DNA of 57,679 bases, taken from contig JAUSJM010000029.1 in NCBI GenBank assembly GCA_030647265.1, positions 1-57,679 on the forward strand. The letters are read 5' to 3'. The stretch's first letter is position 1, and each line of letters begins with the position of its first letter. Of this stretch, positions 6,926-56,718 are shown one piece after another. Both the position numbers and the translations under genes were made by a program. The stretch comes from a bacterium (lineage in GTDB: Bacteria > Patescibacteriota > Microgenomatia > Daviesbacterales > UBA10151). The notes under the pieces were generated by a model that was not told where the DNA came from, did not search any database, and was given only the letters and a program-made list of their open reading frames with translations.

Positions 6926-6931
6926 GAGAGT

Positions 6932-6941
6932 ATTGTACAAT
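6932..6941. promoter_or_regulatory. palindromic ATTGTACAAT giving a TACAAT -10 hexamer on both strands, for rsmH and the divergent GT4 gene
   Basis: The rsmH ATG (6925) and the GT4 ATG (6949) are separated by only 23 nt. TACAAT reads at 6936-6941 on the + strand, 7 nt before ATG 6949. It reads at 6937-6932 on the - strand, 6 nt before ATG 6925. Confidence 0.4.
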
Positions 6942-6948
6942 GTAAGGG

Positions 6949-8753: not shown

Positions 8754-8756
8754 AAG

Positions 8757-35160: not shown

Positions 35161-35234
35161 GGGCTCATGGCTCAGTTGGTTAGAGCGTTGCATTCACATT
35201 GCAAAGGTCCCAGGTTCGAATCCTGGTGAGCCCA
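35161..35234 (+). tRNA. tRNA-Val (anticodon CAC)
   Basis: Hand-folded cloverleaf: acceptor GGGCTCA/TGAGCCC, D arm GCTC-AGTTGGTTA-GAGC, anticodon arm TTGCA-TTCACAT-TGCAA, T arm CCAGG-TTCGAAT-CCTGG, discriminator A. No encoded CCA. Confidence 0.9.
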
Positions 35235-35310
35235 CAAAAAATAGGTTTTTCAGTTTTGATATAGATAAGCCTTCTTGTATTTTTTCCATCTTCAGGTTAA
35301 CATTTTATCC

Positions 35311-40760: not shown

Positions 40761-40896
40761 AACATTATATTTAATCTTATGAGGTATCTTGTCAAGATAG
40801 AGATGGGAATAAAGGTGTTCCAGACGAGCAACTTCTCAATTTCTTTAGAGGATTATTGTTAATGACACTAAATGTCTTATTTGTTAAACTACTCCT

Positions 40897-42153
40897 GTGG
40901 ATAAGATTATTTTAAAGAATTCCGTTTGGTTACTGGGTGCTCAAGTTTTAACTAAGGTTGTCGCCTTTTTTTATACATTTTTTTTAGCGCAAAATCTCAG
41001 TGTAGGTAATAATGGAATTTATTTTGTAGCACTTTCTTATTTTTCAATACTTTCTTCATTTGCCGATTTCGGGATTTCGAGATTTCTAATCAGGGAGATT
41101 TCCCAAAAAAAAGAAACGGCAACATCATATATTCTATCAGCAACGTTGCTTAGAGTTGCCATCGCCTTCCTTATTTTTATCTGTTTGTCTATAGTTCTTT
41201 TAAGTTATGATCATAATCAAGTTAGAGTAACACTTAGCATAATAGCCGTATTTGCAATTATTCCCCAAATTATTGGAATTACGTTGGATAATGTTTTTGC
41301 TTCATTGCAGAAGTTTCATATTTCAGCGTTGGGTATCTTAATTTTAAATATCTCTAATGCGATTATCGGCGTTTTCTTTATTAAGTCCGGTTTTGGTCCT
41401 TTAGGAGTTGTGACGGCTCTTTTACTTTCTCAAATAGTTTTTGTTTTAGCGCTTTTTGTAATGTTTAGAAAAGAACATGTTGTAATTGAAAAAGTTGTTA
41501 CTAAGAAACAAATAAAGGAAATACTTAAAGGCTCTATACCTTATGGGTTGCTTAGTATATTAGGACTACTATATTTTAGGATAGATATCTTGTTGTTATC
41601 TTATATAAGAGGTCATGAGGAAACAGCTTTTTATGGACTTTCTTATAAATTTTTAGAAGCTGTAATCTTTATTCCTAGTGCGTTTGGGGCAGCACTTTTC
41701 CCTTTTTTAGCAGAATTTCAAACAAAGTTAAAGCAAGGTATAACTTCTACTTCTGATCTAAAAAAGTTTTACTATAAAAGCCTTCTCTTTATGGGGGTGT
41801 TAGGTGTTGTAACTTTGATTGGTTATATTTTTGTTTTACCAATTGTAATTAGGTTATTTTTACCTAAATATTTGGCATCCATACAAACAATAACTATTTT
41901 AGCATTCACTATCCCTTTCATGTTTATTCATAACCCTGGAGTCCAAATTATTTTATCTACGGACAAATATTTAAGGCTTGTTATATTTCTTTCGGTAATA
42001 ACTCTAGCTTTTAATTTAGTATTTAATTTTATCTTAATACCTCAATATGGGTATATTGGAGCAGCTTGGGTGACGGTTCTATCAGAGATATTTTCTTTCC
42101 TGGTTTTTTATTGGTTACTAAGAGCAAAATTTTTTAAAGAAGATGAAAAATAG
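40897..42153 (+). CDS. Wzx-like oligosaccharide flippase (MOP superfamily polysaccharide biosynthesis protein)
   Basis: GTG start, about 12-14 TM helices, and the typical N-terminus NSVWLLGAQVLTKVVAFFYTFFLAQNLS. It sits next to GT2 genes. Confidence 0.75.
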   Translation: MDKIILKNSVWLLGAQVLTKVVAFFYTFFLAQNLSVGNNGIYFVALSYFSILSSFADFGISRFLIREISQKKETATSYILSATLLRVAIAFLIFICLSIVLLSYDHNQVRVTLSIIAVFAIIPQIIGITLDNVFASLQKFHISALGILILNISNAIIGVFFIKSGFGPLGVVTALLLSQIVFVLALFVMFRKEHVVIEKVVTKKQIKEILKGSIPYGLLSILGLLYFRIDILLLSYIRGHEETAFYGLSYKFLEAVIFIPSAFGAALFPFLAEFQTKLKQGITSTSDLKKFYYKSLLFMGVLGVVTLIGYIFVLPIVIRLFLPKYLASIQTITILAFTIPFMFIHNPGVQIILSTDKYLRLVIFLSVITLAFNLVFNFILIPQYGYIGAAWVTVLSEIFSFLVFYWLLRAKFFKEDEK

Positions 42154-43081
42154 TTTAGCTATTGTTGTTGTTAACTGGAATACTGGTAATATTTTAACTC
42201 ATTGTCTTAACTCAATAAAAAAATATTCACCTTCAATACCTTATGAAGTTTATGTTGTAGATAATAACTCTTCAGATAATACCGTTGAAATCATAAAAAA
42301 GAAATTCCTTTGGGTAAAGTTAATTGTTAATAAAGATAACTTAGGTTTTGGAAAAGCGAATAATCAAGTTCTAAATAAAATAAAAGACGAATATGTTTTT
42401 ATACTAAATCCTGACATAGAGTTTACTACAAGCACGGTTTATCATTTACTAAATTTTTTAAAAGAAAATTCAGATGTAGCAGCCTGTGCTCCCATAATGC
42501 TTAATAAGGATAGGACGATTCAATCAAAAGGTTACTATCACCGCTTTCCTTCTTTAGCCCAAACATTGCTTTTTTATACTGATTTATATAAAGTAAGCAT
42601 TAAAAATAAAAATCTTGTTGAGCAATTTTGGGAAAATAAAATTGATATTAAAAATAATTTTGAAGTTGACCAAATACCTGGAGCATGTATTTTTGCCAGA
42701 GTTAATAAATTAAGAGAGGTCGGTTTTTTTGATAAGAGATACCCCCTTCTTTTTGAGGACGTAGATCTCTCCTATAAACTAAAACAAAAAGGAAGCAAAT
42801 TATTTGCTGTGCCAAGTAGTAAAGTTATTCACCTAGGTGGTGAATCTTTCAAGAAGCTGGAGGAGTCTGATGTCCAAATTATATTTTTTAGAGGACTGTT
42901 TATTTTTTTCAGAATACATAAGAATATACTTGAGCAACTCTTGGTAAAATTAATTATTTTACTGAACTTAATTTATTTGATTACATTAGTTAGTATAAAA
43001 CGGATAATCAAACCTACAGAAGATAAAAACCTGTTTATAAAAAATAAATGGAAGGTTGCTAAATGGTTGCTAGTATCATAA
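42143..43081 (+). CDS. GT2-family glycosyltransferase
   Basis: AIVVVNWNTGNILTHCLNSI..VVDNNSSDNT..GFGKANN..FEDVDLSYK give the GT-A DxD plus ED motif pattern. Confidence 0.85.
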   Translation: MKNSLAIVVVNWNTGNILTHCLNSIKKYSPSIPYEVYVVDNNSSDNTVEIIKKKFLWVKLIVNKDNLGFGKANNQVLNKIKDEYVFILNPDIEFTTSTVYHLLNFLKENSDVAACAPIMLNKDRTIQSKGYYHRFPSLAQTLLFYTDLYKVSIKNKNLVEQFWENKIDIKNNFEVDQIPGACIFARVNKLREVGFFDKRYPLLFEDVDLSYKLKQKGSKLFAVPSSKVIHLGGESFKKLEESDVQIIFFRGLFIFFRIHKNILEQLLVKLIILLNLIYLITLVSIKRIIKPTEDKNLFIKNKWKVAKWLLVS

Positions 43082-44043
43082 TTCCCAGTTGGAACGGTTT
43101 GAAACATTTGAGAAAATGTTTACCCTCAATATCATCACAGACTCTTCGAGGTGTTGAAGTAATAGTAGTCGATAATGGCTCTGAGGACAGTTCTGTATCC
43201 TACATTAAAAAGTCATTTCCAAAATTTAAAGTTATAGAACTATCTGAAAATTTGGGTTTTGCTAAAGCTGTAAATCTAGGAATTAAAGAGTCTCACGGGA
43301 AATACATAATCTTGATAAACAATGACACAAAGCTTCAAGAAAAGGCTATAGAGTATCTTGTTAAAGCAGCTAATAATCATCCAGAAATAGGATTTGTTGC
43401 CTCTAAGATGCTTAATTTCTTTAAATCTGGAGTAATAAACGCAGTTGGTGGTTATATTGACGCTGTTGGTCATGCTAATAATTTAGGAATGGGAGTTAAG
43501 GATACTAAAAGGTTTAATAAAGCAGGTTATGTTTTTATAGCAACAGGAGGAGGTGGTCTCTTTAAGAGAGAAGTGTTTGATAAAGTAGGTCTATTCGACG
43601 AAGACTATTTTGCTTACATGGAGGATGTAGATTTATGTTTTCGTGCCCAGCTTGCAGGCTTTAAGGGTTGGTATGAGCCCAAGGCGATCATTTATCATGT
43701 TCATAAGGCTACTTCATCTCGAAACCCAGCATTTCTCGAATACTTGCAGTTTAGAAATATGACAATGACTGTAATTAAAAACTTTCCGCGAAATCTACTT
43801 CTTAGAGATTGGAATTGGTTCAAAGCATTTTTGGTGAATATTAATACAGTTAGATTTCTTGCCAGTGAAGGGTATTTGTTGTCAGCATTAAAGGCTGAAT
43901 GGTATATATTAACTAACATTAGGAAGTTGCTTCAAAAAAGAAAAAAGATTCAGAATTCAAAAAAAGTACCAGATCAATATATTATCGAAAATATTTTGCC
44001 AAAGAAAATAACATTTTTTGGTTTCTTAAAGCCTGGAATCTAG
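43063..44043 (+). CDS. GT2-family glycosyltransferase
   Basis: IIIPSWNGLKHLRKCLPSI..VVDNGSEDSS..GFAKAVN..MEDVDLCFR. Confidence 0.85.
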   Translation: MVASIIIPSWNGLKHLRKCLPSISSQTLRGVEVIVVDNGSEDSSVSYIKKSFPKFKVIELSENLGFAKAVNLGIKESHGKYIILINNDTKLQEKAIEYLVKAANNHPEIGFVASKMLNFFKSGVINAVGGYIDAVGHANNLGMGVKDTKRFNKAGYVFIATGGGGLFKREVFDKVGLFDEDYFAYMEDVDLCFRAQLAGFKGWYEPKAIIYHVHKATSSRNPAFLEYLQFRNMTMTVIKNFPRNLLLRDWNWFKAFLVNINTVRFLASEGYLLSALKAEWYILTNIRKLLQKRKKIQNSKKVPDQYIIENILPKKITFFGFLKPGI

Positions 44044-45201
44044 TTGGGCAACAGCTACTGTGACCCAAACTAAGATCCAGGGGTAGAAAAGGGAGTTAAC
44101 AAAGAGGCTGTGGGCTAGAAGGCCTGGGAGGGCAGAGAGTAAAATTAGTCCCCAATTGTTTTTATTTTGATAGTTTTTAAAAGCTAGGTAAATCAAGCTG
44201 AGTAAAAAGAGTCCATATGAGAGTAAACCTAGTATTCCTGTAGTGGAAGCTATAAAGAGGAGGCTGGAATCATTACCAGAACCCCCTCTGCTTTGAATAA
44301 AAGAATCTGAGGCCAGGTGATATTGCTGCAGGGCATATCTGTAGCTGTTAAAGCCCACTCCTAAGAAAGGATGACTCTCAAAAAGTTGCCTTCCCTGTTT
44401 CCAGGAGGAAACCCTGTATTCTGCTGATTGTTGTCTGTTGATATTTCTTGACTGGGCTATCGTCTGATTATAAAAGATAAGGCTGAAGATAAATCCAACA
44501 GTAAGTATCACTGCCAGAAGCCCTGTTCTCCATGATCTTTGAAGGATAGCCAGGGTAAAGAAGCTTACTCCCAGCATGATAGCAGAGCTTCTGGAAAAGG
44601 TAGTAATCAGGGCCAAGTAAGTGATAAGAAAAGCTATTTTCTTCATCTTGGATTTTAAATAAGAATTTCCCTGAATCAGAAGAAGTGTCAGGACCAGGAA
44701 AGCTCCTAAAAAGTTGGGATCTAGGAGGGTAGAAACGGTTCTCAGGTAATGGGGGTCCCATCCTTGGGTTGTTAAAAAAGAGAGGTTGGGAAGAAAGATT
44801 AGCTGAAGCAGCCCTAAGATAGCCAGAACAACTCCTGAGGAGATTAGAACAGAGGAAGTTTTGAGAGTGGGGAAAGCTCCTGAAAAAATGACCCACCCCA
44901 GCAGGATAAAAGCTAAGAATCTCAAAGTGTAAGCAAAGCTGAAGACAGTTTCCGGGAAGGTAAGCTTAAGAGGAGAGAAGATTAGAGAGATGATAGCAAT
45001 CAGGGAAAAGATCAAAGCGGTGATAATCCAAAGGGGAGGACTTTTTAGCTTGAATCTTAGTTGAACCAAAGCTAAAATATCCAGGAAAACTACCACCAAA
45101 TCCAAAAGGGTGAGACCGGAGGCTTGTCCCAGAGGGAGTTTAAAAACTTGCCCAGCAATCAGTCCCAAAAATAATAAGAAGCTGGGTAAAATTTCTATCA
45201 T
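44026..45201 (-). CDS. Wzy_C-type (O-antigen ligase / O-oligosaccharyltransferase-like) polytopic membrane protein
   Basis: About 10 TM helices, FSRSSAIMLGVSFFTLAIL (Wzy_C core) and an extracytoplasmic loop HPFLGVGFNSY. Its ATG lies 1 nt after the stop of the upstream gene. Confidence 0.7.
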   Translation of the reverse strand: MIEILPSFLLFLGLIAGQVFKLPLGQASGLTLLDLVVVFLDILALVQLRFKLKSPPLWIITALIFSLIAIISLIFSPLKLTFPETVFSFAYTLRFLAFILLGWVIFSGAFPTLKTSSVLISSGVVLAILGLLQLIFLPNLSFLTTQGWDPHYLRTVSTLLDPNFLGAFLVLTLLLIQGNSYLKSKMKKIAFLITYLALITTFSRSSAIMLGVSFFTLAILQRSWRTGLLAVILTVGFIFSLIFYNQTIAQSRNINRQQSAEYRVSSWKQGRQLFESHPFLGVGFNSYRYALQQYHLASDSFIQSRGGSGNDSSLLFIASTTGILGLLSYGLFLLSLIYLAFKNYQNKNNWGLILLSALPGLLAHSLFVNSLFYPWILVWVTVAVAQLDSRL

Positions 45202-45202
45202 C

Positions 45203-45985
45203 TTAGGGGGTAGGTGTAGGAGTGGGGGATTGATAAACTACTTTTCTGGTGATTTGAGTACTATTTCCCGCTGCATCTGTCGCTATAACCACAATATCAT
45301 TATCCCCGTCATTTAAATTAACAGTTTGAGAAAAACTTCCACCGGAATTAACAATCACCCTGTTACTGTTAATGGTCACGGTAATCTCTTTACTGGCATC
45401 AACACTACCGGAGACGGTAACCTTTTTATCACCGCCATTAATAGTTTGATTATCCTGAGGCTCTTTTAAATCAAGCTGGGGTTTTTCACTTTCATAAGTT
45501 ATATGAATAGCCGGAGAAGATAAACTTTTATTACCCTGATCATCAACAGTTTTTCCAAAGATATTGTTGGTGCCAAGGTTAAGAAAAATTTCATCGGAAG
45601 TAAAGCTACCATCGTCGGAGGCTGTAGTGGTATTTTGGAGATTATCATCAATATAGATCTCCACTTTAGACTTAGGGACAGCATAGCCATGAACTTTAAT
45701 AGTGGCAGAGTTGGTAGCTTCGAAGGGAATGTTCAGGACCGGGGGGGCTAGGGTAGCGTTGTCAGAAACGGATTGTTGGGGAACAGGGGAAGATTTAAAC
45801 CTGTTAAGAAAGGTTAACCCCCCGATAAAGTTGGGCAGAAACCAGGTAAAAAGAAAATAAGTTAAAAAAGAAACCAAAAGAATTACTACATAAAGTTTTT
45901 TCTTAGCCCGTTTTTCCTTATTCCTGAAAGAAAATGGTCTATTCGAAGAAAAGCTTTGCTTATATTGTTGTTTGTACTTTTTCAT
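45203..45985 (-). CDS. membrane-anchored Ig-like (Big-type) domain protein with a TPTPTP tail
   Basis: Lys-rich N-terminus plus a TM helix (LYVVILLVSFLTYFLFTWF). It has two Ig-like modules (..ATIKVHGYAVPKSKVEIYIDD.., ..VTVSGSVDASKEITVTINSN..VVIATDAAGNST). Confidence 0.6.
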   Translation of the reverse strand: MKKYKQQYKQSFSSNRPFSFRNKEKRAKKKLYVVILLVSFLTYFLFTWFLPNFIGGLTFLNRFKSSPVPQQSVSDNATLAPPVLNIPFEATNSATIKVHGYAVPKSKVEIYIDDNLQNTTTASDDGSFTSDEIFLNLGTNNIFGKTVDDQGNKSLSSPAIHITYESEKPQLDLKEPQDNQTINGGDKKVTVSGSVDASKEITVTINSNRVIVNSGGSFSQTVNLNDGDNDIVVIATDAAGNSTQITRKVVYQSPTPTPTP

Positions 45986-46028
45986 AATTTGAGCGAAGCG
46001 AAAATTTCAAGCTTTGCTTATAATTTAG

Positions 46029-46100
46029 AGCCGGTGGACGGAATCGGACCGTCGCTCTTGCGCTTACGAAGCACCTGCTTTGCCACTAAGCTACACCGGC
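46029..46100 (-). tRNA. tRNA-Thr (anticodon CGT) with a non-canonical T-loop
   Basis: Hand-folded: acceptor GCCGGTG/CACCGGC, D arm GCTT-AGTGGCA-AAGC, anticodon arm GGTGC-TTCGTAA-GCGCA (one G.A), variable AGAGC, T arm GACGG-TCCGATT-CCGTC, discriminator T. No encoded CCA. Confidence 0.85.
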
Positions 46101-46117
46101 TTCTAGGTTGTATTTTA

Positions 46118-46708
46118 TCAGTTCTGCTCTAGTTTTCCCAACACCAGCAGCCTCTTTAAAGTAGTGCCGGGCGGCCAGCAGGTCATAAGGGTGATTACCG
46201 GTTCTGAACCTTTGTTGTTAAGATAAGAGACTTCAGAGGGGTCAACCAACTTTTTCTCAGTGACAACATAGGTAAACTTCTGTTTTTGGTAGAAAAGGTC
46301 AATTTCATCTCCTGCTTCTAACCTGTGGAGAAGGTAAAAAATGGAATTATACCTATTAGCCTCAAAGAAGTTGGCGGAAGAATGGGCAAAGATAAAAATA
46401 TTTCCTGTCTCTCCCGGTAGAGCTGTTCCCTTAGCCTGAGCCACTCCCTTGCTTAAAGCTATTTGGTATTCCCTCTCATTGTAAGGGTCAACTCCGGGAA
46501 TCACCTTGGCATTAGCCCTAATTTTAGGGATAACGATACCAAACTCTTCATCTACAGGCTGGATGGTCTGGGAATTAGGAGAAACAGGGGCAGTGGCAAA
46601 GCTTAACTCTTCTTTTAAAGGTGAGTAGAAAGTGAGCCCCAAAATAGTCGAGGCAGCAGCAAGGAGGATCAAACCGGAAATGATCAGAAGGTTAGGAAGT
46701 TTAGGCAT
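46118..46708 (-). CDS. sortase-family transpeptidase
   Basis: N-terminal TM anchor, catalytic His (IFIFAHSS), the TLxTC motif (ITLMTCWPPG) and a downstream Arg (LKRLLVLG). Confidence 0.85.
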   Translation of the reverse strand: MPKLPNLLIISGLILLAAASTILGLTFYSPLKEELSFATAPVSPNSQTIQPVDEEFGIVIPKIRANAKVIPGVDPYNEREYQIALSKGVAQAKGTALPGETGNIFIFAHSSANFFEANRYNSIFYLLHRLEAGDEIDLFYQKQKFTYVVTEKKLVDPSEVSYLNNKGSEPVITLMTCWPPGTTLKRLLVLGKLEQN

Positions 46709-46709
46709 G

Positions 46710-47663
46710 CTACTTCCGGGACTTTTGGTAGCGGTAAAAGGCTCCCAAAATCAGCAAGATTCCTAAAGCAATAAGAATGTTATTCAAACTAAAGAGGCTT
46801 CTCCTTCCATTACTTGGGCTTCCCTGAGGGATGTCTTGACCCGAGTCTGAGGCATTCTCTCCCAGAGTTTTTCCCTCACTGCTTTTAGTGGCTTCCTCTC
46901 CCAGGATTTCCCCTTGGGAAAGGGAGGATTCACTAATAGGAATTGCTCCTGCTCCCGGGGTAGGGGTAGTGTTGACAACTGTCGTGGTAACTATTTTAGT
47001 CTCACTGTCTCCGATGATCCCTGAGCCGTTTCCAGCCCCGTCAAAGGCCCTGATAGCAAAGTAATAGGTTTTGCCACATTCTCCGTCAACCAAGCTCGAT
47101 CCTTCCTGGTTAGAACCGATCCACACTGTGGCTACCCTGGTACTCCCGTCGGCAGTAAAGTTAGTGTTTTCCGAACGGTAAACTTCAACTTTGGATGTTT
47201 TGCCCCCATCATCAGCAGTTTTAAACTTAATTTTATACTGGCAGGCAGTTTGTTCTTTGCTGTAGCTAACAGGAGTGTCTGGACCGCTGGTTTTGTATTC
47301 TACAGTCACCTCTTTCTGGGCATCTTCTGAACCATCTGTAGCTTTGACTTGGAAGATGTAGCTTCCTTCTGCTGATAAAATTGATGAATCTACCTGGCAG
47401 CTGTCAGTATCCCCTCCTGCTATTAAGTTGATATCAGAACCAAACTGAGTAAAATCACTGTCAGAGGGCCCTTTCTTATAGCATTTGACGGTAATGGGGT
47501 TGTTTTGGAGATCCAAGGCTACAAAGGTGATATTAAAGCTGCTTTGATTAGTGGGGGTTTTAGGTTGTTCCACTCTCAAGGAAAGGTTGGCAGCATAAGC
47601 CAGCTGAGTGATAAACAGAGAGGCAAAAAGTAGGGAAATGGTTTCTATAAATCTTTTAAGCAT
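46710..47663 (-). CDS. secreted FN3/Ig-like domain protein with a C-terminal anchor or sorting-signal-like tail
   Basis: Signal peptide ..ITQLAYA. FN3-like YYFAIRAFDGAGNGSG. The tail is SPSNG-RRS-LFSLNNILIALGILLILGAF-YRYQKSRK. It overlaps the giant gene by 8 nt. Confidence 0.65.
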   Translation of the reverse strand: MLKRFIETISLLFASLFITQLAYAANLSLRVEQPKTPTNQSSFNITFVALDLQNNPITVKCYKKGPSDSDFTQFGSDINLIAGGDTDSCQVDSSILSAEGSYIFQVKATDGSEDAQKEVTVEYKTSGPDTPVSYSKEQTACQYKIKFKTADDGGKTSKVEVYRSENTNFTADGSTRVATVWIGSNQEGSSLVDGECGKTYYFAIRAFDGAGNGSGIIGDSETKIVTTTVVNTTPTPGAGAIPISESSLSQGEILGEEATKSSEGKTLGENASDSGQDIPQGSPSNGRRSLFSLNNILIALGILLILGAFYRYQKSRK

Positions 47664-50600
47664 TTCTCCTCCTTAAAACTAATCCATAGCTGAATAATCC
47701 AATTCCTGATATTAATAAAAGGGAAGCTAAGGCTACCCAGACAGTTTGGGCTCCACTGGAAGGTAGGGCAATGGAGGCTCCCAGGACTTCCTCTTGCTTT
47801 TCATTGATAACATTAAAACCGGTACTGCCGCTTGAATTTAAAGCTACATTAACATCTGTACTAACAAAGTAAGCTGGGTCTGATTCAATATTAGCGTATG
47901 TTGTATCGCCTGTAGCAGTACCTTGAGCCCAGGCCAAATCTTTATACAGCCCCGGGTCTACACTTGTATCAATATCAGCAATATAAGTTAAGGTAATAGT
48001 CTCACCTGTCTGCATATCACCTAAATTCCAGATTCCGGGTGAGGCATAAGTTGGCTCTGAAACTACCAAACCTAGATTAAGGTTGGAGCTTGCTGTCCAT
48101 GAACCCAATCGGTATTTAAAACCTGCCGGCGGCAGATCAATTAAGGAAACATTTTCTAAAGGACTGCCTGTCAGTGTTAAGGTTAAAGTATAAAGCACAC
48201 TTGATCCTGCTGACACATCTACTCCTGTTTTGTTGTTTGCTTTGGTTAAAGTTAAAACAGGCGGCAGTACCTGATTTTCAAAGGTACAGGTGGTTTCTGA
48301 GCCGTTTCTGACACTAATTTCTATTGAATTGGTGGTACCTGTTTGTTCATTCTCTTCCCCTTGGAAACAGGACCAGCCCAAAAGCTTGTAACCTGCCTGC
48401 TCATCTTCTGAAATTGTGTAAGAACCTCTTGCCAAGCTTTTATCCCCTCCCATTGGGATATTTTGATCACCATCTGCTATATCATATGTCCAACCCTGGG
48501 CATTTCTGACATCTCCCTCATCATCAGTATCCCCATCACCATTATTATCAATATTCTTTAAAATTGTAATGGAACCATCATTTTGAGTATTGATAAAAGT
48601 ACAATTAACTGTTTCATCCTTGCCTACTTCTATGCCATCAACGCTGTCTGTTCCGTCATATGTTCCCCGTGAGGATTCTTCTCCTGCAGAGCAGGATGCT
48701 GAAACAATATGATAGCCCTCCTTGCTTCCTTCAACAGCCGTATACTCACCTGTTTTAATATTGCCTGTTTCAGTATTCCCATTTTCATCTGTTGTTGGCA
48801 GGGAAGGATTACTGGTATCTTGCCCTGTTCCGTCAACATCCATTACCCAGTCCGCTCCCGGGATCCTGTCATCAGTTGTTTGCAGATCTCCATCCTCATC
48901 TATAAGTTTTTGAATGATTATTCTTCCTGTATCACGAGAGTTACAAAGAGTAATCGAACTCTGATTATCTGTTGAAACATTGATGGACTCGGGCAAGGTT
49001 TCTTCTTCCGGTTCATCACAACTTCCGAAATCGCTGTTATTGTCATACCAACCTGTGAAAGTATAGCCTGCTATATCGTTTTCAGATACAGAATAAGATC
49101 CTGTTGGTAAAGGATCGGCAACTGATCCCATCAGATGCTCCGGTGTTTCACTGTCTATTCCCCACCTGAAACCAAGATCATTGGCTTGATCATTTCCACC
49201 ATCAAACTCGCCATCCCCGTCAATATCCACCTCTTTATTAACCTGTAAAGAACCTGTATCACGGGTATTGGTAAATGTACAAACCAAACTATCACCAGGG
49301 TCAATTGCAATTTCCTGGCTTTCAGTTTCACCGTACTCAGTTTCGCCGCATATAAGACCCGTCACATGATAGTTCTCCTGCTGCTGTTCGGAAATTGTAT
49401 AAGTACCTGCAGCCACTTCCTGTGTTGAGCCTGTTTGGAAGCTACCGGCAGAATCTATATCATAAAACCAATCTGTTGCGTCTGATACATCCACAGTCCC
49501 GTCTCCATCACTATCAACATCCTTTTTCACGGTAATCGTTCCCCGTCCTTGGTTTCCAAAATCCCGACCAGTAATTTCTGTACCAGATCCAATTGTTAAA
49601 ATATATGTGCCGTTTGCCTGGCGACCCAAGCCCCCGTAAGTGGCATCCGGTCTGGTTTGAGTCCAACCTGTTTGTGTGACTTCGCTGACTATATAAATTC
49701 CGGGCTCCAAGCCATTAAAAGCATAATTACCGGAGTCATTCGTTATAATTACACAAAGTTCTCCAACTATGGTTCCACTGCAAACAGGCGGGTTAATGTC
49801 ATTTTGTCTATCCAGTGTAATAGTCCATCCCGGTAGATTAGGATCCGTAGTAGTATTATCTCTTTGGTGATCACCATTTAAGTCATTAAACTTTTTACCA
49901 GAAATTTTGCCTGGTTGATCATCATTGGTAATTGAACAGGTTTTTTCATCCCCAACACCTAGTGTGATAGTGCCATCGGTTGCACAATCTGTACCCCAAT
50001 CAGAAGCAGTATAACCGGAAGCGGTTGACTCAGAAACAGTAAAAGATCCTGCTGTTAAAGTATGGGTGCCCCATGATGAAAGTCCTCCATCAATATAAAC
50101 ATTAAAGTCATCCTGGGTAGCTGTTCCTCCATTATCATTAGGAAGATATTTTACCAAGGTTAGGGTTGGAGCAACATCATCATTTGTGATTGTACAAGTA
50201 ACATTTTCAGCCAAATTTAATGTGATTATATTTTCATTCTGATCTCCCCCATCACAATTCCAATCGCCTTCTGTATAGCCATCTGGACCAGATTCAGAAA
50301 GATTATATTCAAAATTGGCTGTGACAGGATGAAAAGTCGAAGAATTGCCGCTATCACTAAAGCCGTTACTGTCACCATCAGCGGTTAATATCCATGCAGA
50401 AGGGGTGGCTGTACCACCATCGTCATTGGTGACTAGTTTAACTAACTTAAGAGTTGGAGCTATATCACTATTGGTAATCTCACAAGAAACAACGTCCCCA
50501 AGACCAATATTAACAGAAGAACCTGATACAGATGCTCCACCATTTTTTACACAACTCCACGAAGAATCAGAATAGCCAGTTAGTCCATCTTCAGAAAGAG

Positions 50601-53600
50601 CATAAGTTCCTGCGCTAAATGTAGAATCACTGGTAACCCCACCTAATCCAGAAATAGTAGTCAGTCCAGTGGCTGTCAGAGTCCAATCACCTGCTGAAGC
50701 AAGACCTCCATAGCTGTTATCTACAATTTTGGTTAATGTTAAAGATGGAGCAATGTCATCATTTGTAATTGTACAAGTTTTATTATCACCTGGTGCTAAA
50801 GTAATAGACCCATCAGGTGCACAATCTTCGCCCCAATCTGAAGCAGAGTAACCTATAGCAGCGCTTTCAGAAGCAATGTGAGCTCCAGCACTTAATGTTT
50901 TAGCTGCACCACTGGAGGTCGCTACACCATCAATCCTTAGGTTAAAGTCATTAGCATCTAATGTTCCCCCGTTGTCATTAATAACTGTTTTTACCAAGGT
51001 TAAAGATGGAGCAATGTCATCATTAGTCACAGTACAAGTTTTAGTTTCACCTAAAGCAATAGTTCCTGAGCAATCGGTAGAATAATTCGGAGCATAACCA
51101 GAAGAGCCAACTTCAGTTACAGAATATGTTCCTGGTTCAACTACAGTATCAGTACCAGGAGTATCCTCACCGCTAAAAGATCCTCCTCCCACAACTCCAC
51201 TAATTGTCATTGTAAAATCGGAAGAGTTAGCAGTACCATCATCATCATTTACTACATGCTTAATAACTTTAAGGTGGGCGGGTTTGTCGTTGTTGGTAAT
51301 AGTACAGGTCTGAGTACCGCTATTTGATACTACAACCCCAGTGCAGTTATCATATGAGGTGTCATAACCAGCCACAGTAGGCTCAGTTACTGTATAAGTT
51401 CCAGCATCTACAGTTAAATCATTCTGCCCATCAGCTTCAAAATTAGTAGCAGTACCACTGTTAACCTGGAATGAGAAATCTTGAGCCTCCAAAGTCCCAC
51501 CATTATCATTTAAAACCACTTTTTTAACTATTAAAGTTCCTTGCTGATCATCATTAGTTATAGAACAAACTGTGCTTTGTCCAAGAGCTATGGTGATCTC
51601 ACTGCTGCCATTAACTGTCACACCATTGGTACAAGACCAAACACTTGCTGTATATCCAGAAGGTCCAGCTGATTCAGACAAAGTATAAGTACCCGCATCA
51701 AAGGAAGCATCGCTTACAACATCAGCAGAGCCTGCAGCTCCTGGCCCAGAAATTGATGTTGGACCAGTCGCAGTTAAGGTCCATTCTGATTCTGCAGCTG
51801 AACCACCGTTATTATTTGTCACAATCTTATCTAGTGTTAACGAAGGAGCATTATCATTATTAGTAATAGTACAAGTAGCTGATTGGCCAAGACCCAGGGT
51901 TATTGTATCCCCTTCTTGAGTTCCACCTTCACAATCCCAAGCTGAAGCAGTATAACCAGAAGGTCCAGACTCACCCAAAGCATAGGTGTCTGCTTTAAAG
52001 CTTAAACCGCTATCAACTGGTGTAGTTCCGCTCAGACTTGTGGGTTCGGATAATGCGCCTGTTGCAGTTAAAGTCCAATCTGCTTCTGAAGCTGTTCCTC
52101 CATTATCCTTAGTTAATGTTTTTCTCAAATGCAGAGAAGGAGCATTATCATTATTGGTAATAGTACAAGTGGCTGAACCTCCATTAGTGATTACGAGATC
52201 AGAACAGTTATCATAGGAAGTGCTATAACCAGTAACAGCTGGTTCGGTTACATTATAAGTTCCGGCATCAACAGTTAGATCGTTTTGTCCATCTGATTCG
52301 AAAGATTGTGCAACGCCTGTGTTAACCGAGAATGAAAAGTCTGAAGCAACTTTTGTTCCACCATTGTTATTAGTAACAACCTTTTTAATAATTAAAGTTC
52401 CTGCCTTGTCATTATTTGTAACCGTACAGGTTTTAGTTTGGCCAAGGGTAATTGTGCCACTGCAGTCAGTTGAATAAGTAGCAGTATAACCGGAATCTGA
52501 ATCCTCACTAACGCTATATGAACCGGGCTCTAGGGTTACTGTAGTCCCGGGAATACCTACACCTGGGAAAGAAGGATTGCTCACATTAGTTCCAGTAATA
52601 TTTATTGTGAAATTTGAAGCTGTCTTTAGGCCACCATTATCATTTGTAACCTGCTTTATAACTGTTAAGGTTGTTTGTTGTTGTCTATTTGTAACATACA
52701 CATGGGTTGTTTGGTTTGCAGTAACTGTTACGGAGAGACCGCTTACATTACCTGAGCCACCCTGAGTTGCGCTAATGCCATAAATACTGTAACCCGAAGG
52801 AAGAGTACCTTCAGTAACTGTATGGCTACCTGCTGTAATATTGCTGTATGTCACTGTTCCGCCATCAGTGAAAGTTTGTGAATTAGCTCCATCCAGCTCT
52901 GCTGTAAAATTCTGAGAGATATCTGTTATATCTTCACCGCTAGGACCCTGAACATCTTTATGAACTACGATTGTTCCCTGTTGAAGGCTATCGTTAAACG
53001 TGCAGGCAATATCGTCTCCTGCATCAACTACAATACCTGTCATAGAATTCCCACTTATAGTACCCACGGAACTTCCACCATTATCCACACATGAAGCACT
53101 ATCCAAACTCCAACCGCTTGGTACTGTTTCAGAAATAGAATATGTTCCGTTCTCTACACTGTAACGCTGGCTTGTTCCGCTTCCGTTAATGGAAAAAGTG
53201 TAGTTACTTGTACCGCTTATACCAAAATTAAAGGTTGTACCATCATTTGGGGTAGCTACTTTAGTAACAGTAATAAATCCTCCTGTTGGTTCACCTACAC
53301 AATCTGAAGGATCAGAATTTGGCTGTCCTGAGGGGAAGGAACATAAATTAAGTAAAACATATTGGGTGCTTCCGAAATTGCTCGGATTTAAAGCACAAGT
53401 CCCGACTGTATCTTGAGGGTAAGCTGTACCAGCGGAAAAAGGATCTTCATTTGCCTGTGCAGCACTACAAGAGGTTCCAGAGGCAGAAATTGAATTTGCC
53501 GGCTGACCGCATCTGTCTGACTTTGTATCTCCACAGGAGTAGAGAGTGAAGCTGCTAAACTCCATTAAATCAGTTGTAGAGTTCGGCAAAAGACTGTTAC

Positions 53601-54555
53601 AAAGCGCATAATTTGCTTTTCCGTCACTATCAGTATCCCAAAGGGTACAAGCATCGTAAGTATTGTTTCCTCCTCCATATATCTCATCCCAGTTAAATTT
53701 AATTAATAGAGGGGAGATAGTTTTGTCAAAACACATTTTTGTGAGATCTTTTTGTCCTGGCTGATCGTTTGCTCCATCTACATCTGAGGTACAAAGCAAG
53801 CTATCAGTAAAGGTTGTTGAAGCTACAATATTTCCTGCCTCATCTTTAACCTCCACATTATAATTTGGTCTGTAATTGCCATCTAATTGATAAGAATAAA
53901 TAAACTCACCCTTATCATTTGTTGTGACTTTAGTTTCAAAATTAACCGCTGGATCATCAGATGAAGAAATTATTAAAGTGTAATCAGTATTGGGTAGAAA
54001 CTCTGTCCCGGAAACTATAACTGTATCTGTAGGAGCATAATCTCCTTTATCAGTTGTTAAAGAAGCACTGGAAACATTTGTAGGATTAAGATCTAAATTT
54101 AAAGAATCAGCATCAGTGTTTTCAATAATGGAGGCCTCAAGATGTCCACGAGCGGGTTCAGAAATTGGAGATGAACTTACTTCCGGAGAAGCAGTCACTG
54201 AAGGAGCGGGTGTTTCAGATGGCGGAGCATTTGATTGATTAGTATTTTCTGTTGAAGAGGAGGAAGGAGTATTTTCAGGTTGGGTTGTCGGAGCAGGAGT
54301 TTCTGTAGGAGTAACAATTTCTGCTGGTGTTGGTTCTACAGTAGGTTCAGAAGTGGGGGTGGGTTCTGAGGTAATAGTTGGTGTTACCTCTGTAGGAGTA
54401 GGGGTGGTTTGTTCAGTACTGGAAGTAGCTTCTTGGGCTGAAGCTGTAGTGGGGTTTGCTAAAAAGAGGTAGGCAGGGGCCAGGGACTGGAAGATCAGTA
54501 TAAGGCTTGTGAGTAGGGCAAAAGCTTGTTGGTATATTTTAGATTTTAAGTTCAT
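47656..54555 (-). CDS. 2299-aa sortase-substrate-type surface protein (giant adhesin)
   Basis: Single uninterrupted ORF. Domain order: signal peptide; a T/P/S/E-rich linker (about 54150-54435); a Cys-rich region; 12 tandem units of about 94 aa (..LTLxKxVxNDNGGTAxxxDF..CTITNDD, prealbumin-like/SpaA-type); an SdrD-B-like unit (ISGKKFNDLNGDHQRD..PGWTITL); 4 units with DxDGDG; a DUF11-like unit; then LPSSG plus a hydrophobic stretch plus RRRNA. Confidence 0.9.
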   Translation of the reverse strand: MNLKSKIYQQAFALLTSLILIFQSLAPAYLFLANPTTASAQEATSSTEQTTPTPTEVTPTITSEPTPTSEPTVEPTPAEIVTPTETPAPTTQPENTPSSSSTENTNQSNAPPSETPAPSVTASPEVSSSPISEPARGHLEASIIENTDADSLNLDLNPTNVSSASLTTDKGDYAPTDTVIVSGTEFLPNTDYTLIISSSDDPAVNFETKVTTNDKGEFIYSYQLDGNYRPNYNVEVKDEAGNIVASTTFTDSLLCTSDVDGANDQPGQKDLTKMCFDKTISPLLIKFNWDEIYGGGNNTYDACTLWDTDSDGKANYALCNSLLPNSTTDLMEFSSFTLYSCGDTKSDRCGQPANSISASGTSCSAAQANEDPFSAGTAYPQDTVGTCALNPSNFGSTQYVLLNLCSFPSGQPNSDPSDCVGEPTGGFITVTKVATPNDGTTFNFGISGTSNYTFSINGSGTSQRYSVENGTYSISETVPSGWSLDSASCVDNGGSSVGTISGNSMTGIVVDAGDDIACTFNDSLQQGTIVVHKDVQGPSGEDITDISQNFTAELDGANSQTFTDGGTVTYSNITAGSHTVTEGTLPSGYSIYGISATQGGSGNVSGLSVTVTANQTTHVYVTNRQQQTTLTVIKQVTNDNGGLKTASNFTINITGTNVSNPSFPGVGIPGTTVTLEPGSYSVSEDSDSGYTATYSTDCSGTITLGQTKTCTVTNNDKAGTLIIKKVVTNNNGGTKVASDFSFSVNTGVAQSFESDGQNDLTVDAGTYNVTEPAVTGYSTSYDNCSDLVITNGGSATCTITNNDNAPSLHLRKTLTKDNGGTASEADWTLTATGALSEPTSLSGTTPVDSGLSFKADTYALGESGPSGYTASAWDCEGGTQEGDTITLGLGQSATCTITNNDNAPSLTLDKIVTNNNGGSAAESEWTLTATGPTSISGPGAAGSADVVSDASFDAGTYTLSESAGPSGYTASVWSCTNGVTVNGSSEITIALGQSTVCSITNDDQQGTLIVKKVVLNDNGGTLEAQDFSFQVNSGTATNFEADGQNDLTVDAGTYTVTEPTVAGYDTSYDNCTGVVVSNSGTQTCTITNNDKPAHLKVIKHVVNDDDGTANSSDFTMTISGVVGGGSFSGEDTPGTDTVVEPGTYSVTEVGSSGYAPNYSTDCSGTIALGETKTCTVTNDDIAPSLTLVKTVINDNGGTLDANDFNLRIDGVATSSGAAKTLSAGAHIASESAAIGYSASDWGEDCAPDGSITLAPGDNKTCTITNDDIAPSLTLTKIVDNSYGGLASAGDWTLTATGLTTISGLGGVTSDSTFSAGTYALSEDGLTGYSDSSWSCVKNGGASVSGSSVNIGLGDVVSCEITNSDIAPTLKLVKLVTNDDGGTATPSAWILTADGDSNGFSDSGNSSTFHPVTANFEYNLSESGPDGYTEGDWNCDGGDQNENIITLNLAENVTCTITNDDVAPTLTLVKYLPNDNGGTATQDDFNVYIDGGLSSWGTHTLTAGSFTVSESTASGYTASDWGTDCATDGTITLGVGDEKTCSITNDDQPGKISGKKFNDLNGDHQRDNTTTDPNLPGWTITLDRQNDINPPVCSGTIVGELCVIITNDSGNYAFNGLEPGIYIVSEVTQTGWTQTRPDATYGGLGRQANGTYILTIGSGTEITGRDFGNQGRGTITVKKDVDSDGDGTVDVSDATDWFYDIDSAGSFQTGSTQEVAAGTYTISEQQQENYHVTGLICGETEYGETESQEIAIDPGDSLVCTFTNTRDTGSLQVNKEVDIDGDGEFDGGNDQANDLGFRWGIDSETPEHLMGSVADPLPTGSYSVSENDIAGYTFTGWYDNNSDFGSCDEPEEETLPESINVSTDNQSSITLCNSRDTGRIIIQKLIDEDGDLQTTDDRIPGADWVMDVDGTGQDTSNPSLPTTDENGNTETGNIKTGEYTAVEGSKEGYHIVSASCSAGEESSRGTYDGTDSVDGIEVGKDETVNCTFINTQNDGSITILKNIDNNGDGDTDDEGDVRNAQGWTYDIADGDQNIPMGGDKSLARGSYTISEDEQAGYKLLGWSCFQGEENEQTGTTNSIEISVRNGSETTCTFENQVLPPVLTLTKANNKTGVDVSAGSSVLYTLTLTLTGSPLENVSLIDLPPAGFKYRLGSWTASSNLNLGLVVSEPTYASPGIWNLGDMQTGETITLTYIADIDTSVDPGLYKDLAWAQGTATGDTTYANIESDPAYFVSTDVNVALNSSGSTGFNVINEKQEEVLGASIALPSSGAQTVWVALASLLLISGIGLFSYGLVLRRRNA
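49920..53290 (-). repeat. in-frame tandem array of 12 domain-coding units with a period of about 260-305 nt
   Basis: Unit junctions (C-T-I/V-T-N-D/N-D) recur near 50181, 50461, 50761, 51021, 51291, 51555, 51861, 52151, 52411 and 52690. Exact DNA repeats include the 26-mer gttaaagatggagcaatgtcatcatt at 50738-50763 and 50999-51024, and the 20-mer gaaggagcattatcattatt at 51842-51861 and 52146-52165. Confidence 0.8.
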
Positions 54556-54603
54556 TTAAAACTTTAGGCAGAATATTTTTATATATAGGGTAGTTTACTT
54601 TAA

Positions 54604-54632
54604 TTAATACTCCTTGTGAAGCTATTTGTCAA
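54604..54632 (-). promoter_or_regulatory. sigma70-type promoter of the giant adhesin operon with the TTCACAAGGAGTAT cassette
   Basis: Minus strand: TTGACA (54632-54627), the 17-nt spacer AATAGCTTCACAAGGAG, then TATTAA (54609-54604). It lies about 48 nt upstream of the ATG at 54555. Confidence 0.45.
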
Positions 54633-54705
54633 GTAGCATTATAGGGTTTGATATATTTATTCTAAAAACCTTGTTGACTTTTTAAGATTATGATAAGGTA
54701 AAAAT

Positions 54706-54969
54706 ATGAGTAAAAAGGAAATGATAGCGATATTAATTCTAAGCTTACTAGTCACCTATTTAACTCCTGCTGTAGAAATTTTAGTTACAGGATGGTCTTT
54801 ATCTGGTGGAGAGGAAGGTTTACCATTGAGATTCCATAAATCTTTTTTTTCTGGGTATGGACAGTATGATCTTAAAATATTCTTGTTGGATAGTATATTT
54901 TGGTTTATTCTAATACTTCTATTTTGGAAATTTGTCCTTAAAAGGTCTTCAAAGTATGCAAAAAAATAG
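54706..54969 (+). CDS. hypothetical small membrane protein (two TM helices)
   Basis: 87-aa ORF with hydrophobic segments IAILILSLLVTYLTPAVEILV and IFWFILILLFWKFVL. No family recognised. Confidence 0.4.
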   Translation: MSKKEMIAILILSLLVTYLTPAVEILVTGWSLSGGEEGLPLRFHKSFFSGYGQYDLKIFLLDSIFWFILILLFWKFVLKRSSKYAKK

Positions 54970-55509
54970 TTAGTTCTTTTGATCGTGGGCTACCAACACC
55001 ACCTTCTCTACTATCCCAACGTTACCAGCCTTGTCCTCTGTTTTAGCTTGTACTTTATAAGTTCGTCCATCGCTATCATTACCGTTCCTCCAGGCTTCCA
55101 GGGGAACGATTTGGTTAAGATCATCAAAAGTTAAGTTATAAACATGGTATTCGTCGTTAACTGATAAGTTCTTAGAAGCTAAGCCTGAAATATTATCTTC
55201 AGCCGATCCGGAGATTGTGACATTAATCATCTGTTTATCCGGGGGCCAAATAATATCGGAAGAAACATTGAGTGCAATAACAGGAGTAGTTTTATCTATC
55301 TTAATCTCCAATTCCTGGGGTATTTCCTCATTTCCTGCCTTATCCATAGACCTAAACTTTAGTTTAGAAATGCCCTTTGTGGAAATAGTAAAGGGATTAG
55401 TATATGTCTTAACAGTTTGCCCATCATCTAAGGTGTACTCAGTTCTTAATATTCCTGATCCACTGCTGTCATCCTTGGTAGTAAACCTTGTGAAAATATT
55501 TGTCAACAT
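54970..55509 (-). CDS. Ig-like/OmpL47-type domain protein without a signal peptide; possibly a 5'-truncated remnant
   Basis: TEYTLDDGQTVKTYTNPFTISTKGISKLKFRSMDKAGNEE and YKVQAKTEDKAGNVG are Ig-like surface-domain motifs. There is no N-terminal signal or TM segment. The annotated ATG lies inside a promoter-like cassette. Confidence 0.45.
   Translation of the reverse strand: MLTNIFTRFTTKDDSSGSGILRTEYTLDDGQTVKTYTNPFTISTKGISKLKFRSMDKAGNEEIPQELEIKIDKTTPVIALNVSSDIIWPPDKQMINVTISGSAEDNISGLASKNLSVNDEYHVYNLTFDDLNQIVPLEAWRNGNDSDGRTYKVQAKTEDKAGNVGIVEKVVLVAHDQKN
55478..55506 (-). other. third copy of the TTGACA-N6-TTCACAAGG cassette, overlapping the first codons of the 179-aa ORF
   Basis: Minus strand: (A)TGTTGACA-AATATT-TTCACAAGG-TTTACTAC. 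TTGACA is at 55506-55501 and TTCACAAGG at 55494-55486. Confidence 0.3.
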
Positions 55510-55606
55510 ACTTATAGGTTAAAGGGCTTCCAGTCTGTTCTTTTCTTTCTTGATCCTTACTAAACCTTAAGATGCTCTTCATAGAAAAAGATGAGAATAT
55601 AGGGAG

Positions 55607-56641: not shown

Positions 56642-56647
56642 CTGATG

Positions 56648-56718
56648 AGCGGGATACCAGAATCGGACTGGCGGCTCTACCTTGGGAAGGTAGCGTATTA
56701 CCACTATACAAATCCCGC
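56648..56718 (-). tRNA. tRNA-Gly (anticodon CCC) with a non-canonical T-loop
   Basis: Hand-folded: acceptor GCGGGAT/ATCCCGC, D arm GTAT-AGTGGTA-ATAC, anticodon arm CTACC-TTCCCAA-GGTAG, variable AGCC, T arm GCCAG-TCCGATT-CTGGT, discriminator T. No encoded CCA. Confidence 0.85.

Follow-up and report, generated by a model that had tools for sequence, protein, structure and literature searches.

Members of the Candidate Phyla Radiation (CPR, or Patescibacteria) are thought to live attached to other cells, and to our knowledge little of their attachment hardware has been described beyond the type IV pili of Saccharibacteria. In contig JAUSJM010000029.1 of a Microgenomatia bacterium (assembly GCA_030647265.1; the whole stretch of 57,679 nucleotides that was analysed is called the window here), the genes for a giant repeat protein, a sortase, a Wzy_C-type membrane enzyme and a Wzx flippase lie side by side. 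This raises the question of whether they encode one apparatus, in which a glycan is made, flipped and placed on a sortase-anchored adhesin, as the original prediction proposed, or separate systems. Our results indicate that the region probably represents two independent cell-surface modules, juxtaposed by local rearrangement, and not one conserved machine. The first module, M1 (46118-54555), is a sortase/LPXTG system with an obligate and often fused third component, and the second, M2 (40897-45985), is a Wzx-dependent module with an aspartate-variant WaaL-fold enzyme and an Ig-like partner. A single glyco-adhesin machine as a conserved entity is not supported.

All open reading frames (ORFs) of the original prediction were reproduced at the same coordinates in the ORF list, together with the close gene spacings that had suggested one co-directional string: the 8-nt overlap of the giant and P317 genes, the 1-nt gaps between the P317 and sortase genes and between the IgL and Wzy_C genes, and the 18-nt convergent overlap. 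The sortase, Wzy_C, Wzx and two GT2 assignments also hold in Pfam, with 83, 57, 96, 78 and 100 bits, respectively. The features are as follows.

47656-54555, minus strand: giant SpaA-repeat protein of M1, 2299 aa (Pfam SpaA_2, SpaA_4, SpaA).
47725-47739, minus strand: LPSSG sorting motif of the giant protein, read from the sequence.
47656-47678, minus strand: junction coupling the giant and P317 genes, with the 8-nt overlap ATGCTTAA.
46710-47663, minus strand: P317 of M1, a 317-aa type I membrane protein outside the Pfam and NCBIfam families, described from its AlphaFold (AF2) model.
46118-46708, minus strand: membrane-anchored sortase of M1, 196 aa (Pfam Sortase), starting 1 nt after the P317 gene.
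46028-46100, minus strand: tRNA-Thr(cgt), a backbone marker at the boundary of M1 and M2 (ARAGORN and Rfam).
45203-45985, minus strand: IgL of M2, a 260-aa Ig-like membrane protein ending in TPTPTP (Pfam Glucodextran_B, Big_13, Big_6).
44026-45201, minus strand: Wzy_C protein of M2, a WaaL-fold membrane glycosyltransferase of 391 aa (Pfam Wzy_C), 1 nt after the IgL gene.
43063-44043, plus strand: GT2b of M2, the conserved GT2 (Glycos_transf_2, 100 bits), its 3' end sharing 18 nt with that of the Wzy_C gene.
42143-43081, plus strand: GT2a, the variable second GT2 (Glycos_transf_2, 78 bits).
40897-42153, plus strand: Wzx-type flippase of M2 (Polysacc_synt, 95.8 bits).
46118-56641: variable slot with M1 and three small genes, bounded by tRNA-Thr and tRNA-Gly.
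56647-56718, minus strand: tRNA-Gly(ccc), the far edge of the variable slot (tRNA scan).
35161-35235, plus strand: tRNA-Val(cac), a backbone marker beyond Wzx (tRNA scan).

To describe the two modules among relatives, two surveys were performed. For the sortase, one genome per species of GTDB was scanned with a sortase alignment, and 80 loci with 10-kb flanks were kept of 261 relatives and annotated with hidden Markov models (HMMs) made from the window proteins and their homologues. For the Wzy_C protein, six orthologue neighbourhoods and 80 metagenome loci obtained with a Wzy_C alignment were annotated in the same way, and the linkage of M1 and M2 was judged on the local gene neighbourhoods of the sortase-anchored and Wzy_C-anchored loci. 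Domains were called at the curated cut-offs of Pfam and NCBIfam, tRNAs with ARAGORN and Rfam, and folds by AF2 modelling and Foldseek searches against the PDB. Candidatus Daviesbacteria and other Microgenomates were the source of those relatives that carry names, with identities of 46-57% for the Wzy_C protein and 50-63% for the sortase. The window itself is assigned to a Candidatus Daviesbacteria chromosome and is a piece of its backbone, because it carries a dcw cluster (MraZ, MraW, penicillin-binding protein, Mur ligases, MraY, FtsW, MurG, FtsA and FtsZ), IleRS, RodA and ParB; L21 and signal peptidase I are encoded there too, and genes for peptidoglycan synthesis are present. The Rfam scan of the window returned nothing beyond three tRNAs. 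A definition of operons by promoter and terminator scans was dropped, since the counts did not exceed those of shuffled sequence (41 versus 36.9, and 10 versus 12.2).

In these surveys M1 and M2 were each conserved alone, while their joint neighbourhood was not. Among the Wzy_C loci, 32 extend at least 5 kb upstream, and none of these 32 contained a match to the sortase, P317 or the giant protein. Conversely, of the 69 sortase loci whose downstream sequence covers 3 kb or more, only 3 contained a Wzy_C-like gene, which lay 4.6-9.3 kb away and scored 44-118 bits, compared with about 500 bits for orthologues. The two modules are adjacent only here, and the idea of one self-contained module is not supported.

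The tRNA genes account for the adjacency. In Daviesbacteria, the IgL gene is preceded by tRNA-Thr(cgt) and/or tRNA-Gly(ccc) in the loci scanned (L104, L119, L126, L138 and others), and tRNA-Val(cac) lies beyond Wzx, by a backbone of signal peptidase I, ParB, L27, L21, RodA and IleRS, in 22 of the 35 loci scanned. Both upstream tRNAs were found in 27 of 35 loci; 13 of these have them within 90 nt of each other, and in the others the distance is 0.4-8.8 kb (overall 1 nt to 8.8 kb). In the window the same gap measures 10.5 kb (46100 to 56647) and holds the M1 triad of giant protein, P317 and sortase genes plus three small genes. The triad was present in none of the relatives' tRNA-Thr/tRNA-Gly gaps, and it was not near these two tRNAs in the other genomes checked. 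M1 thus adjoins M2 here because it fills a variable slot between tRNA-Gly and tRNA-Thr.

One relative, L089 (Wzy_C protein 54% identical), shows a similar order: a big protein, a 245-aa FN3 protein, a sortase, tRNA-Thr, an Ig-like protein and Wzy_C, with convergent GT2, GT2, methyltransferase and Wzx genes and an M23 peptidase. The L089 sortase scores 40 bits on the triad-sortase model, compared with more than 260 bits for triad sortases, and neither P317 nor giant-protein matches were found in its cassette (L089:3-3793). The big protein of L089 ends in a C-terminal transmembrane (TM) segment without LPXTG, and its small protein carries a sorting-like GEVLGLSATGS followed by a TM segment. Considered as a true replicate of the whole arrangement, L089 was thus rejected, and what it holds is a paralogous cassette in the same slot. 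Given L089, a neighbourhood of this general layout is, strictly speaking, not missing from every relative; apart from this non-orthologous case the joint neighbourhood is not conserved.

Within M1, the giant protein consists of a signal peptide, a T/P/S/E-rich tip, a Cys-rich N-terminal domain, about 17 SpaA-type prealbumin-fold repeats and a sorting signal. Pfam assigned twelve SpaA_2 domains (526 bits, E 1e-161), four SpaA_4 domains and SpaA, which gives it a tandem stalk of the CnaB/SpaA type. Among the families put forward for HMM checking, Sortase, Wzy_C and SpaA were recovered; SdrD_B and Cna_B scored under their cut-offs in the giant protein, and DUF11 gave no Pfam match. The T/P/S/E-rich tract described in the original prediction is present (T 24%, P 21%, S 17%, E 14%), but it occupies N-terminal residues 41-135, that is, the distal tip, and does not stand beside the wall anchor. 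In 32 of 58 giant orthologues, T and P together account for at least 50% of a 50-aa stretch within the first 300 aa.

The C-terminus of the giant protein reads VLGASIALPSSG, followed by about 26 hydrophobic residues and RRRNA, so that the predicted cell-wall sorting signal is borne out in all three of its parts (VLGAS..LPSSG, TM segment, RRRNA). The window contains no other sorting signal, and this one provides the sortase with an LPXTG-type substrate encoded beside it, as had been proposed. Across Microgenomates, giant orthologues of 0.7-3.1 thousand aa are encoded upstream of the sortase, and their C-termini follow the pattern VLGAS..LP[AS]TG, TM segment, RRK. Position 4 of the motif was Thr in every motif matched among 83 genome-scan loci (LPATG 46, LPSTG 10, LPGTG 8 and others) and mostly Thr, with Ala or Ser in a few, in library representatives. 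The LPSSG of the window, with Ser at position 4, is an outlier relative to the orthologous substrates.

The sortase was identified by Pfam PF04203 (MEROPS C60; 83.3 bits, cut-off 26.6) and NCBIfam TIGR01076 (57.4 bits, cut-off 39.35); the near-ubiquity of a sortase family in Microgenomates has been published (PMC6744442). The aligned His, Cys and Arg on which the assignment had been made to depend beforehand are in place: His109, Cys177 (in TLMTC) and Arg186 are invariant in 29 sortase orthologues and align to PDB sortases. Its nearest relatives in the PDB belong to classes C and A, and no NCBIfam model of classes A-F reached its cut-off; the best was class C with 64.2 bits against 160, and D, E and F were also below.

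The third component, P317, was described as FN3-like in the original prediction. No Pfam or NCBIfam match was obtained for it, while its AF2 model (mean predicted local distance difference test, pLDDT, 80.8) does contain two beta-sandwich domains and a C-terminal TM helix. The protein has a signal peptide (AYA|AN), two beta-sandwich (FN3/Ig-like) domains, a disordered linker with GEILGE, and a C-terminal TM segment followed by KSRK; it has no LPXTG motif, and its lysines K35 and K136 are conserved. A more precise fold identity was sought with Foldseek, which returned only generic tandem FN3/Ig matches with a TM-score of about 0.25, owing to domain orientation. A degenerate xPxxG sorting motif before the TM helix was also considered and rejected: it occurred in four sequences and was not general in 33 more, where only (V/I)LG recurs.

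P317 accompanies the sortase with great constancy. On long contigs, the closest sortase homologues are encoded with a giant SpaA-repeat protein and a 311-323-aa protein without a Pfam match, with the same 8-nt overlap. In 75 of 78 informative Microgenomates loci a P317 homologue lies immediately upstream of the sortase. It is a separate gene in 43 loci, with the giant gene adjoining in 42 of them, and the 8-nt overlap recurs in 23 of these 42 relatives with split genes. The codons AGG AGG AGA, which encode the RRR tail of the giant protein, form a Shine-Dalgarno-like sequence just ahead of the P317 ATG, and from the sequence this looks like the ribosome-binding site of P317.

In another 32 loci (about 40%), the giant protein continues in frame into P317 at its C-terminus, and the LPXTG signal thereby becomes internal. 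Examples are L018:2917-9996, L033:2254-10014, L074:1537-10002, L081:640-10005 and L086:2791-9981, with 27 further loci, and P0364, P0367, P0370 and others. At the fused junction, VLGAS-LPATG is followed by a TM segment and KK(R); then come a second hydrophobic stretch that closes with an AxA site of the signal-peptidase type, the P317 domains, (V/I)LG, another TM segment and KKRK. The fusions are not assembly errors, because the fused set includes a single-cell genome (L086). The two states follow taxonomy: the fused state was found in Roizman-, Shapiro- and Woesebacteria, and the split state in Davies-, Levy-, Chisholm-, Collier- and most Gottesmanbacteria.

An independent search with a P317 profile against 1.84 billion cluster representatives gave 517 representatives at E<=1e-30. 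Of the 150 best matches, 144 were new relative to the earlier loci, and these 144 were examined. Of these, 93 are longer than 450 aa and carry the P317 module at the extreme C-terminus. An internal LPXTG motif stands 300-500 aa from the end in 92 of the 93, and behind it come a TM segment, basic residues and another hydrophobic stretch that ends in an AxA site.

Two observations on the M1 loci are added here. Many records of metagenome-assembled genomes (MAGs; L011, L012, L016, L022-L024 and about 30 other loci) titled 'uncultured Gammaproteobacteria', 'Pseudomonadales' or 'Bdellovibrionales' hold the Microgenomates triad, with a sortase identity of 47-57%, and these record titles seem mislabelled. 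In one MAG (L006:10625-20591 and L007:10643-20245) the genes downstream of the triad encode a CAP-domain protein, sugar-nucleotide enzymes, a GT2-GtrA protein (polyprenyl-phosphate sugar synthase-like) and PMT_2, which is the layout of protein O-mannosylation systems. A tie of the triad to such genes was considered and rejected, as they occur near it in only 3-5 of 83 loci.

From what is known of the protein families, we propose that M1 acts as a surface-fibril cassette across Microgenomates. The giant protein would be exported through Sec and retained in the membrane by its VLGAS..LPSSG, TM and RRR signal, and the sortase (Cys177/His109/Arg186) would cut the LPXTG-type motif and link the giant protein to peptidoglycan precursors. 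P317 would be a dedicated membrane-tethered partner made 1:1 with the giant protein, the coupling probably being translational here, and in the fused lineages a single precursor would be split by the sortase and signal peptidase. We put forward tentatively, as a possibility that falls somewhat short of even expectation, that M1 is an undescribed three-component sortase system, near-universal in Microgenomates, in which P317 is an obligate partner, the single precursor of many lineages has a TM hairpin and a signal-peptidase site behind its internal sorting signal, the sortase also processes a polyprotein, and the whole is the main candidate for the attachment of these episymbionts to hosts or surfaces.

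The glycan set of M2, comprising Wzx, GT2 and Wzy_C, is likewise present, as predicted, and is conserved in relatives. A convergent Wzx orthologue lies no more than 6 kb from the Wzy_C gene in 35 of 42 loci. In 35 of 64 loci a GT2b orthologue meets the 3' end of the Wzy_C gene directly or with an overlap, usually of 26 nt (18 nt in the window; relatives include L109, L111 and L122). GT2a is variable, with clear orthologues in L089 and L094 only. The GC content is 0.31-0.33 over the Wzx and GT2 genes (window 40001-44000) compared with 0.40-0.44 in the flanks, which fits an exchangeable glycan cassette. No initiating phosphoglycosyl transferase was found in 40.9-46.0 kb, the nearest candidates being Bac_transf at 8007-8753 and MraY at 19872-20900, and the glycan set contains no sugar-nucleotide genes. 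Given that M2 carries no priming transferase and that the window Bac_transf gene has no orthologue in any related locus, M2 is not self-contained.

Elsewhere in the window, a second glycan cluster (2183-10661) encodes PMT_2 (a GT-C enzyme), three GT4-type glycosyltransferases, a Bac_transf priming enzyme and DUF4012; no other cluster nearby could supply M2 with a priming transferase. Next to Wzx, an 852-aa secreted protein (38202-40760, minus strand) has a 3-keto-disaccharide-hydrolase-like (lectin-like) domain and an M23 peptidase domain, and may be a peptidoglycan hydrolase; its orthologues adjoin the same glycan module in L089 and L100.

The Wzy_C protein scores 57.3 bits in Pfam Wzy_C (cut-off 31.7), and its AF2 model has a pLDDT of 90.6. 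In Foldseek the top match of the model was the WaaL O-antigen ligase 7tpg (7tpg_B; E 2e-7, TM-score 0.60), with SEDS polymerases far behind, and 7tpg was also its sole PDB sequence match (profile, 8.6e-6). The structural comparison called for in the original prediction therefore yields a WaaL fold; a separation of WaaL from PglL/PilO or Wzy was attempted by the same fold search and abandoned, since the PDB holds only WaaL and distant SEDS proteins and offers no discrimination among the three. Functionally important residues shared by WaaL and PglL are R215, R288 and H338 in E. coli WaaL, corresponding to R224, R298 and H349 in N. meningitidis PglL, with H324 as the PglS counterpart (Schulz et al., PMC3643930). 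R204 and R263 are invariant in 32 Wzy_C orthologues and align to R215 and R288 of E. coli WaaL. The site of the His-Asn pair in the ligase motif H[NSQ]X9GXXG is occupied by an invariant D311-S312-X9-G322-x-x-G325 with the spacing kept, and no His was found in the aligned catalytic loop of the family in alignments to 7tpg and E. coli WaaL. The PglL_A motif (PF15864) gave no Pfam match at E<=0.01. Asp311 in place of the catalytic His and the missing PglL_A motif thus count against the suggestion that this protein might be an O-oligosaccharyltransferase of the PglL/PilO type; judged from its sequence, the protein has the WaaL fold but departs from the ligase/O-oligosaccharyltransferase group in one of the features that define it.

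Since the Wzy_C protein is constantly paired with Wzx and GT2, and no other Wzy candidate was found beside Wzx, it is most likely a polymerase similar to TuaE and SscD, a reading by analogy that we hold loosely. In S. aureus, the TuaE-like Wzy_C homologue SscD is a proposed polymerase that acts after the flippase SscE (PMC11841062). M2 would accordingly represent a Wzx-dependent glycan module across Daviesbacteria: the GT2 enzymes would extend a lipid-linked sugar primed by an enzyme encoded elsewhere, Wzx, from what is known of its family, would flip the lipid-linked glycan to the outer membrane face, and the WaaL-fold enzyme would use it outside the membrane, most likely for polymerisation in the manner of TuaE and SscD, or alternatively for transfer to an acceptor. 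IgL may serve as an accessory subunit or as the acceptor.

The position of IgL suggests an alternative, in which IgL and the Wzy_C protein are a cognate pair of target and O-oligosaccharyltransferase, comparable to pilin-PglL, ComP-PglS and PilA-TfpO, and the giant adhesin is not involved. O-oligosaccharyltransferase genes often adjoin the genes of their targets (PMC3643930), and the IgL gene is upstream of and co-directional with the Wzy_C gene in 46 of 47 informative Daviesbacteria loci; it is immediately adjacent in 16, but in the other 30 of these 46 a gene intervenes. IgL consists of a basic cytoplasmic N-terminus, one TM helix, an invariant TLAPPVLNIPFEAT segment, two Ig-like domains (Pfam Glucodextran_B 78 bits, with Big_13 and Big_6) and an SPTPTPTP tail. 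The invariant segment, which includes T-L-A-P-P just outside the membrane, could suit an acceptor site. The tail was considered as a conserved O-glycosylation acceptor of the TfpO/PilA kind and rejected, since it is absent in all four aligned orthologues. The substituted catalytic residue and the lacking PglL_A motif count against a transferase here as well, and the constant Wzx and GT2 pairing fits a polymer pathway equally. By analogy with such pairs IgL, the constant neighbour of the Wzy_C protein, could be an acceptor, and we consider the cognate-pair explanation as a whole unlikely.

The single apparatus of the original prediction, in which a Wzx/GT2 glycan is transferred by a PglL/PilO-like Wzy_C enzyme to the Ser/Thr/Pro tract of the adhesin that the sortase anchors, has several points in its favour. 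The genes are tightly packed and co-directional in the window, T+P-rich N-terminal tracts are common in the giant orthologues, L089 has a similar layout, and the S. aureus polymer that depends on a Wzy_C protein and a flippase affects the trafficking of sortase-substrate precursors (PMC11841062). Some of these observations also weigh against two independent modules. The shared layout of L089 may reflect a local preference for sortase cassettes at the slot. The spacing of 17 nt between the sortase gene and tRNA-Thr and of 42 nt between tRNA-Thr and the IgL gene makes read-through transcription from M1 to M2 possible, as far as the sequence can tell. Both modules act at the cell surface, and the giant protein offers, in its TP-rich tip, a plausible site for O-glycosylation. 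In addition, the Asp of the Wzy_C protein could be a catalytic base for a polymerase, a ligase or an O-oligosaccharyltransferase alike. Against the single apparatus stand the surveys of linkage, with no adjacency in the Wzy_C-anchored loci and three weak and distant cases in the sortase-anchored ones; TP-rich tips that also occur in lineages without a linked Wzy_C gene; a Wzy_C protein with neither the WaaL/PglL catalytic His nor the PglL_A motif; and a module without a priming transferase. On this balance we regard the single apparatus as very unlikely. Glycosylation of the adhesin is neither supported nor excluded by these data, an integrated glycosylation model being left with a slim chance, and the narrower proposal that the Asp-variant Wzy_C module glycosylates the TP-rich tip of the adhesin in this lineage deserves a slim chance at most.

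A sortase-assembled pilus, with a class C-like sortase polymerising subunits and P317 as the base or terminator subunit, is very unlikely: class C scores highest among the class-specific NCBIfam models, the PDB sequences that match best belong to pilus-type sortases, pilins typically contain SpaA-type domains and the conserved lysines of P317 would fit, but the class C score of 64 bits is far under the cut-off of 160, the window holds a single protein with a sorting signal while P317 has none, a multi-repeat protein of 1.3-3.1 thousand aa is unlike a pilin subunit, and the 1:1 fusion of the giant protein and P317 is at odds with many shaft subunits per base.

Read as two independent modules, the region can be compared with known systems part by part. 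M1 resembles the sortase-anchored fibrillar adhesins of Gram-positive bacteria in its signal peptide, tandem prealbumin-fold repeats, three-part sorting signal and adjacent membrane-anchored sortase with His, Cys and Arg. It differs from them in that its sortase reaches no class A-F cut-off, in the LPSSG motif of the window and the conserved VLGAS before it, in the low-complexity TP tract located at the distal N-terminus rather than near the wall anchor, and in the obligate P317 between substrate and sortase, whose fusion leads to an internal sorting signal. In the literature searched we found no description of the triad, the P317 family, a CPR sortase/adhesin cassette or internal-LPXTG precursors, which is not proof of novelty.

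M2, in turn, is similar by description to tuaA-H of B. subtilis (TuaE/TuaB) and sscA-E of S. aureus (SscD/SscE), which likewise combine a Wzx-like flippase, a 12-TM Wzy_C/RfaL-like protein and glycosyltransferases in hosts without an outer membrane. Unlike these, it contains no priming transferase, sugar-nucleotide genes or chain-length regulator inside the module, and its constant partner is a conserved Ig-like single-pass membrane protein. With WaaL (7TPG; E. coli WaaL) its enzyme shares the fold, the Pfam Wzy_C domain, both arginines and the H[NSQ]X9GXXG spacing; it differs in the invariant Asp for the catalytic His, in an invariant GWDPHY[FL]R loop motif unmatched in the alignments made, and in a host without a lipid A-core acceptor. 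The likeness to PglL, PglS and TfpO lies in a Wzy_C-family gene that stands straight after a co-oriented gene for an exported or membrane protein, whereas the PglL_A motif, the catalytic His and a pilin-like target are missing from M2, and orthologues of the neighbouring protein do not share its Ser/Thr/Pro tail.

For the Wzy_C family, M2 offers a clean and conserved case in which a WaaL-fold enzyme carries Asp where the catalytic His would stand and its host has no outer membrane, and this variant could help to tell polymerase from ligase chemistry within the WaaL fold. For Microgenomates, in which a sortase was already known, the present results add that this sortase keeps near-constant company with one giant LPXTG fibril protein and an uncharacterised partner, and that the partner is often fused to the fibril protein, which places the sorting signal in the middle of the precursor. 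M1 is thus a concrete candidate, open to testing, for the principal surface fibre of Microgenomates, and it may extend the known roles of sortases.

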